Below are positions 387-1,672 of a DNA stretch of 9,671 nucleotides, piece after piece (the stretch's first letter is position 1; each line of letters starts with the position of its first letter). The stretch is taken from the IMG/VR virus record IMGVR_UViG_2526164667_000039; one strand, written 5' to 3'. The stretch comes from a virus (taxonomy: Duplodnaviria; Heunggongvirae; Uroviricota; Caudoviricetes). Both the position numbers and the translations under genes were made by a program. Under the pieces are notes generated by a model. It had not been told where the DNA came from and made no database searches. It worked only from the letters and a program-made list of their open reading frames with translations.

Positions 387-1672
387 TTACCCAACTTTCT
401 TATGGGGCATACATGGGACACTTTCAGATAGTCTTTTGTTAAGGAGTTCTATCTGTTCGTGATTGTTGTCTTTCATCCATGCTCCGTAAACATTGAATAC
501 CATTTGTGCGTTTGTGTGGCCCATCTGGCTTGCGATAAAACTAGGATTAGCTCCTGCGGCAAGTGACCAGCATGCATAAGTATGCCTGGATTGGTACGAT
601 TTTCTGTGTCTCAGACCTGCGCGTTTTAAGATACTTGTCCATGACTCCCTGATGGAGTCAACCTTGTAGTGAGGTCCGGACAACTGCTGCTGTTTTGTTA
701 CCTGAGGACTAAAAACAAAAGTGCATTTATGCACAGCAGTTCTCCCATATTCCCTCTGCTTCACCTCTACAGAATGTTGCTTTCCAAGCATGGTCATTTC
801 CGCCTGGCTTTTAAGAGCATCAATAGCTGGTTGAACCAGATGAATTGTCCTTCCGGTGCCTGCATCGGTTTTTGGTGGAGTGAATTCGCCAAGTTTTGTA
901 TAATTTCTACGGATGGTTATAGTCCTTGCTTTAAGGTCTATATCTTCCCATGCCAGCGATACCAACTCCCCGTGACGAATACCCGTGTATACAGCGAGAA
1001 TCCACAGGTTTTTTGTTTGTTGATGACGGCAAGCCTCAATAAAACGAATAAATTCGTCACGGGTGAGAGGATCTGGTTTTACCTTGGACTTTTTTAAGGG
1101 AGCCAGACCGTTAAATGGGTTTCCTGAGGTATAACCATTATCTGTTGCAAATTGAAACATTCCAGCTATGGTTGTCATATAGTAGTTTACCGTGACCACT
1201 GAGCGCCCTTTTATGGAAGAAGTCTTTCCATTAGAAAGCTTTTGGTAACCGGTCAACAAATCTCTCCTTACGAAAAGTAAATCCTCTTTTGTTATGGATG
1301 AAACCAGTTTTTTTCACCTAACATTGGTAACATGTTTTTAATTACTGACTGGTAACGGTTAAGTGCATTCGCACAAATCTCAATTTTCTTAAGGTCCAAC
1401 CATTTTTCCGAAAGTGCCTTAACGGTTATCTCTCTTTTTCCCAGACCAAAGTGTTTCAGGTTAGGGGAATTAGGGAACTGCGCGGCGTAGTCGAAACTCC
1501 CCATTCTGATTGCAAAACAAACGGAAGTGCGAAGTTCACCAGCGATCTTCCGGTTTTTGGCTGTGTCAGGAACACCGAGGTTTTCTCTGACACGTTTGCC
1601 ATTATAGTGAAACCATATACGGAGTGATCCTCCATGGTTTTCAACGCCTGTCGGGTATGATGCGTTACTCAT
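387..1672 (-). pseudogene. Tyrosine-recombinase phage integrase (Rac/e14-like family), split by a frameshift into a 126-aa N-terminal ORF (1292-1672) and a 290-aa C-terminal ORF (387-1259)
   Basis: N-terminal ORF MSNASYPTGVENHGGSLRIWFHYNGKRVRENLG... resembles an integrase arm-binding domain. C-terminal ORF carries the catalytic region (...TGIRHGELVSLAWEDIDL...HRKSYQSRHTYACWSLAAGANPSFIASQMGHTNAQMVFNVYGAW...). The two ORFs are in different frames (codon phase 1 vs 2) and both frames are open only across 1295-1313. RBS GGAGG lies 4 nt upstream of ATG 1672-1670. Confidence 0.75.
1308..1314 (-). repeat. Homopolymeric A7 tract (T7 on plus strand) at the integrase frameshift position
   Basis: Frame 1 reads GEKNWFHP-stop through this tract; frame 2 reads KKLVSSITKEDLLFVRRDLLTGYQ from it. 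A single-nucleotide indel at or beside the tract would restore one continuous integrase of about 415 aa. Confidence 0.6.

Follow-up and report, generated by a model that had tools for sequence, protein, structure and literature searches.

A split lambda-type integrase gene in the fimD prophage of Escherichia coli DEC9D: probable homopolymer undercall in a draft genome

Background

The closest described relatives of the gene analysed here are the integrases of the lambdoid prophages that integrate at mlrA (yehV), for example WP_000063648.1 of the O157:H7 strain SS17 and WP_000063649.1 of E. coli AR_0013. It is at yehV that the Stx1 prophages of O157:H7 integrate. The mlrA prophages and the prophage under study have the int-xisR gene order and the attL core CACGCGCG in common, and the integrase of the latter, once repaired by a single base, is 100% identical to WP_000063649.1. 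They differ in that the present prophage lies in fimD and its int gene is split as deposited. The window, i.e. the whole stretch of 9,671 nucleotides that was analysed, is an exact substring of contig AIGN01000064.1 (assembly GCA_000249955.2) and reaches the end of this contig. AIGN00000000 is the draft of DEC9D, an stx-negative O26:H11 strain of ST29 from Denmark, 1967 (PMC5592225 Table 1). The strain was sequenced in the DEC draft-genome project (Hazen et al. 2012), in which AIGL, AIGN and AIGO correspond to DEC9B, DEC9D and DEC9E, respectively (PMC5592225).

Integrase genes with an interrupted frame are found as pseudogenes in grounded or cryptic prophages. Like them, the int frame of the window is interrupted in a prophage that bears IS elements; unlike them, the break is probably not real and the rest of the gene is undecayed. 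In IS2, an element of the IS3 family, orfA and orfB are connected by a programmed -1 frameshift and, as in the integrase, an A-rich slippery run links two frames that overlap. However, IS2 is annotated in this way as standard in the relatives inspected, whereas the integrase arrangement is an exception to the single-ORF rule. Homopolymer miscalls in draft genomes, which are known from flow-based and long-read chemistries, resemble the window in that one base is missing from the longest homopolymer of the region and the same shortfall recurs in drafts of the same period. In contrast to what would be expected of a uniform error, the DEC9A draft of the same project has the correct length.

Results

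The features of the window are collected in Table 1. The first-pass annotation of this sequence had reported an integrase inactivated by a frameshift, with its N-terminal and catalytic halves in different frames. The N-terminal ORF, which starts with MSNASYPTG and ends after the tract with five out-of-frame residues (NWFHP), matched the Pfam family Arm-DNA-bind_2 (PF12167) with E = 8e-25, and the C-terminal ORF alone matched Phage_integrase (PF00589) with E = 2.2e-18. The C-terminal frame is -1 with respect to the N-terminal one and its closest upstream stop is located at 1314-1316. Positions 1295-1313, which adjoin the T7 run, are the sole stretch in which both frames are open, just as had been annotated. 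When one T was added to the run, the translation was 428 aa long and matched WP_000063649.1 at every residue, and the protein encoded by the C-terminal frame is 100% identical to the intact allele. In the repaired protein, PF12167 was matched by residues 7-70 (E = 2e-24) and PF00589 by residues 203-396 (E = 4.7e-18). The Pfam matches in both ORFs, together with the one-base repair to a known integrase, indicate that this is not a chance ORF pattern and bear out the claim on the two halves; judged from the sequence, the two ORFs can be assigned to a single integrase gene that is one base short in an A8 run. A single continuous ORF with both domains is absent from the deposited sequence, where it is split at the tract, and present both in the relatives and after the addition of one base. 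Its absence is probably an artefact.

Table 1. Coordinates of the features found in the window.
Feature	Position	Strand	Remarks
fimD 5' fragment (type 1 fimbrial usher)	1-339	+	Cut by the prophage; ORF stop just past the junction
attL core CACGCGCG	329-336	.	fimD/prophage junction
C-terminal integrase frame	387-1313	-	Open 390-1313; stop 387-389; tyrosine-recombinase catalytic domain
N-terminal integrase ORF	1292-1672	-	126 aa; stop 1292-1294 (TAA); arm-type DNA-binding domain (residues 7-70)
Homopolymer tract	1308-1314	-	T7 on the + strand, A7 on the coding strand; apparent -1 deletion site
Excisionase gene, xisR-type	1706-1960	-	84 aa, intact, directly upstream of the integrase; annotated in relatives as xisR WP_001193437.1
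IS2 (IS3-family)	~3084-4413		Common to relatives
IS2 orfA and orfB	3129-3539 and 3497-4402		Overlapping, with an A6 run (3491-3496) and a following G in the overlap; slippery run at 3491-3497
IS100	6948-8900		5-bp target duplication CGTAA at 6943-6947 and 8901-8905; only in this strain

The repaired protein was aligned to the structure of the Tn1549 Int (6emy). The arginine of box I, the H-x-x-R and G-H motifs and the nucleophilic tyrosine were all in place, with the motif pairs tGiRhgEL/tGlRisEL, sRHTy/mRHTf, MGHtN/MGHsN and NvYg/NfYa. With the catalytic domain, the arm-type domain and the catalytic motifs all present, the protein is predicted to be a tyrosine recombinase of the lambda type. 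The tract length, whose comparison with that of related intact prophages had been proposed by the first-pass annotation, is T8 (A8 on the coding strand) in the intact relatives, where it reads GAA AAA AAA (Glu-Lys-Lys), and one base shorter in the window. When the window was aligned with AR_0013 and O157:H7 SS17, T7 versus T8 was the sole difference in this stretch. A yecE-type integrase that is about 80% identical has GAA AAA CGT, and hence A5, at this position.

At its left end the prophage cuts fimD. The 8-mer found at this junction also occurs in related prophages, at their mlrA attL, and at the attR that adjoins the 3' part of fimD in the finished genome of DEC9B, which points to site-specific integration of the prophage at a secondary site within fimD. 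On this sequence evidence, fimD is taken as a secondary integration site that has an 8-bp core in common with mlrA, and the function of the type 1 fimbrial usher would be disrupted. Between its two halves of fimD, the finished DEC9B genome has a lambdoid prophage that measures about 53 kb and carries tccP2. The fimD::prophage junction was found in only 3 of the 5,426 finished E. coli genomes, and in 282 blocks of a large assembly collection. Assignment of the usher in the left flank to yehB was considered and turned out to be wrong, the left flank being fimD.

DEC9B is represented by both a draft and a finished genome. Its draft contig AIGL01000063.1, a product of the same project as the window, has T7, and its gene calls are split in the same way, whereas the finished genome (NZ_CP074760.1) has T8 and encodes an intact 428-aa integrase, WP_000063641.1. 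When the two are aligned over 12,686 bases, they differ internally at the tract alone; four spurious single-base insertions in the draft lie within 80 bases of the contig end. The tract is the sole 8-base homopolymer in this 12.7-kb stretch, and three 7-mers and thirteen 6-mers were called correctly. Since only the 8-mer is wrong and the shorter runs are right, the pattern is the one expected of a length-dependent homopolymer undercall. This undercall is not universal in the DEC project, as evidenced by the T8 of the DEC9A draft. In view of the discrepancy between the draft and the finished DEC9B genome, the headline of the first-pass annotation, an inactivated integrase, is probably not a biological fact for DEC9D. 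The observation by which inactivation would be refuted according to the first-pass annotation, resequencing that shows an A8 tract within one ORF, is available by proxy, from the sister strain DEC9B. A search for a second assembly of DEC9D, done with the frameshifted IstB fragment and the gene beside IS100 as queries, found none, and this IS100 copy was present in the same draft only.

The exact truncated 126-aa product is encoded on 125 contigs of public assemblies. Gene calls split into 70 and 290 aa were found in 23 contigs, and the 10 of these that were listed (AIEW, AIFC, AIFK, AIFL, AIFO, AIGL, AIGN, AIGO, AKLW and AFDV) are all 2011-12 drafts with T7; having been retrieved with the truncated product as query, they have T7 by construction and give the breadth of the phenomenon, not its rate. 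The C-terminal fragments of AIEW and AIFC are labelled DEC1B and DEC2D by their sources. Four O157:H7-type loci among the listed drafts all have this indel relative to the finished SS17 genome, and in three of them it is the sole indel; one listed draft has one extra indel elsewhere. The shorter xis and DUF4222 calls of the DEC drafts were considered as possible further frameshifts and rejected, since comparison with finished genomes revealed no such indel; they are gene-calling differences.

Among the approximately 450 finished E. coli genomes with this region, an 80-base query containing T7 had an exact match in only one. The fimD::prophage lineage was analysed separately with assemblies retrieved by queries independent of the tract. 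T8 was present in 10 of 10 non-DEC assemblies, whereas three of the four DEC9 drafts had T7 (Fisher p = 0.011).

The integrase haplotypes on which T7 is present number at least 11, with some of the assemblies coming from elsewhere than the 2011-12 projects, and in three cases T7 and T8 occur on an identical haplotype background. FDAARGOS_943 has T7, and its gene is annotated as 'frameshifted' in RefSeq. Together with the NCTC assembly GCA_901482675.2 it forms one integrase haplotype (24 differences from the window) with T7 in both members and an mlrA context, and the T7 loci of both adjoin IS3-family and IS1 insertions; if A7 exists as a genuine allele, this haplotype is the likeliest to carry it. 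T7 was also present in two related assemblies, from SRR070455 and SRR29524037. GCA_005384105 and GCA_022976275 are further T7 assemblies that do not belong to the DEC project. In several later T7 drafts, about 6-10 kb of aligned flanking sequence was free of further homopolymer indels, a check that is powerless for the non-DEC T7 assemblies because about 10 kb of sequence contain no 8-mer other than the int tract. The megabase contigs of GCA_051590845.1 and GCA_051590825.1 combine T7 with C5-to-C4 and G5-to-G4 deletions in osmF and yehW, which flank mlrA, and these further homopolymer deletions make their T7 suspect as an error of the same kind. The occurrence of T7 outside the early draft projects, the FDAARGOS_943/NCTC haplotype included, indicates that real A8-to-A7 alleles probably exist in nature. 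No A6 or A9 allele was found in any locus inspected.

Discussion

One important question is whether the split gene reflects the biology of DEC9D or the way in which its genome was assembled. We consider it quite probable that it is a homopolymer undercall in the 2012 draft and not a biological inactivation. According to this explanation, the DEC9D genome would carry A8 (GAA AAA AAA) within a single intact 428-aa lambda-type integrase gene, the draft consensus would have called the A8 run one base short through a length-dependent undercall, and the ORF would thereby appear broken, with the arm-binding domain cut off from the remainder of the protein. Several results favour it: the T7 of the DEC9B draft is contradicted by the T8 of the finished DEC9B genome; the T7 shortfall is common to many contemporaneous drafts from unrelated lineages and nearly absent from finished genomes; and there is no decay, the gene product being identical to that of an intact allele apart from the tract. 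The DEC project reportedly used 454 pyrosequencing together with Illumina. That the same error affected DEC9D is inferred from the sister strain DEC9B and the batch pattern, and sequencing chemistry would be its cause. Of the three causes offered by the first-pass annotation, a sequencing or assembly error is therefore the one favoured, a reversible switch found no support and a fixed mutation is less likely.

A real fixed slippage from A8 to A7 in DEC9D, which would truncate Int after the arm-binding domain and lock (ground) the prophage in fimD, is in our opinion unlikely. The A8 tract is the longest homopolymer in the gene and so an expected hotspot, T7 occurs on at least 11 haplotypes, some of them outside the 2011-12 projects and one represented by the 'frameshifted' gene of FDAARGOS_943, and the insertions of IS2 and IS100 suggest a decaying prophage in which selection on int is relaxed. 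However, the identical change in the DEC9B draft is contradicted by the finished genome of that very strain, the non-DEC assemblies of the fimD lineage uniformly have T8, T7 is confined to a single finished genome and the gene has accumulated no other damage. Moreover, if all T7 loci were real, many independent identical mutations would have to be concentrated in one set of sequencing projects. The spread of T7 over haplotypes, including those from outside the 2011-12 projects, keeps alive a wider version of this proposal, namely that the integrase A8 tract of the mlrA/yehV prophages and of the O26 tccP2 prophage in fimD is a recurrent and perhaps reversible grounding hotspot, of which DEC9D would be a real case with a slightly leaky A7 allele; we regard it as rather doubtful. 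Still more improbable is a phase-variable switch operating by slipped-strand mispairing, with the integrase and excision competence ON in A8 and OFF in A7. The presence of T7 and T8 on identical backgrounds and of both states in the two assemblies of DEC9B would agree with such a switch, but the contrast between ON and OFF tracks the sequencing project and not the biology, the length variation expected in accurate assemblies was not observed (449 of the 450 finished genomes are non-T7), A9 and A6 are missing from the loci inspected, and the tract is not conserved in the diverged yecE-type homologue. GAA AAA AAA consists of the commonest E. coli codons for Glu-Lys-Lys, so that no selection on the tract need be invoked.

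The two reading frames might also be functional as such, either as a genuinely two-part integrase or through a programmed event (-1 slippage of the ribosome, or insertion of an extra A by transcriptional slippage) which would rebuild a nearly wild-type Int. The A7 allele does contain the heptamer A_AAA_AAC, of the X_XXY_YYZ type, in phase with the N-terminal frame (GA A AAA AAC), the C-terminal frame is -1, and the IS2 of the same window is annotated in relatives as using a programmed frameshift. Nevertheless, the homologues are single 428-aa ORFs, and the intact allele is found on at least 1000 contigs versus the 125 that encode the truncated product. This excludes the genuinely two-part integrase that had been put forward as an alternative to inactivation. 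The form with two ORFs is rare and goes with particular assemblies, and the heptamer arises incidentally when A8 loses one A. We give a functional two-ORF arrangement hardly any credence. A real A7 allele could be slightly leaky through -1 slippage, at most as an incidental property of a mutant allele.

If the homopolymer undercall is the correct explanation, an 8-base run has been miscalled in many public drafts of 2011-12, giving rise to false annotations of defective integrases, and the number of inactivated integrases will be overestimated in any survey of pseudogenes or prophage grounding that draws on these drafts. Were the frameshift a true mutation, DEC9D would add one to the prophages that a hotspot mutation has locked into their hosts, which is a well-known and frequent way of domestication; the case would have modest relevance, owing to the effector gene tccP2 carried by the prophage and to the disruption of type 1 fimbriae.

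The transposase of IS2 is annotated with 'programmed frameshift' in relatives, and the A-run of this element is a genuine frameshift site located about 2 kb from the probably false one of the integrase. The IS100 copy has five single-base indels relative to the reference IS100, which cast doubt on the consensus quality of the contig and count in favour of the undercall. One of them, an extra T, splits istB (near 7637) into ORFs of 58 and 212 aa, and the other four are clustered in about 70 bp (~8800-8870) close to the end on the istA side. None of the 5,387 IS100 places in finished E. coli genomes matched the 141-bp end of this copy exactly, the best being 97.9% identical. These indels reflect either decay of the copy or a consensus of poor quality in a repeated sequence. 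Outside IS100, over positions 1-6947 and 8901-9671, the window shares 99.9% identity with E. coli F2_407_2_2, from which it differs by five substitutions plus the tract. The substitutions include one at 4813 and an adjacent pair at 4026-4027 (CA versus TG) in IS2 orfB.
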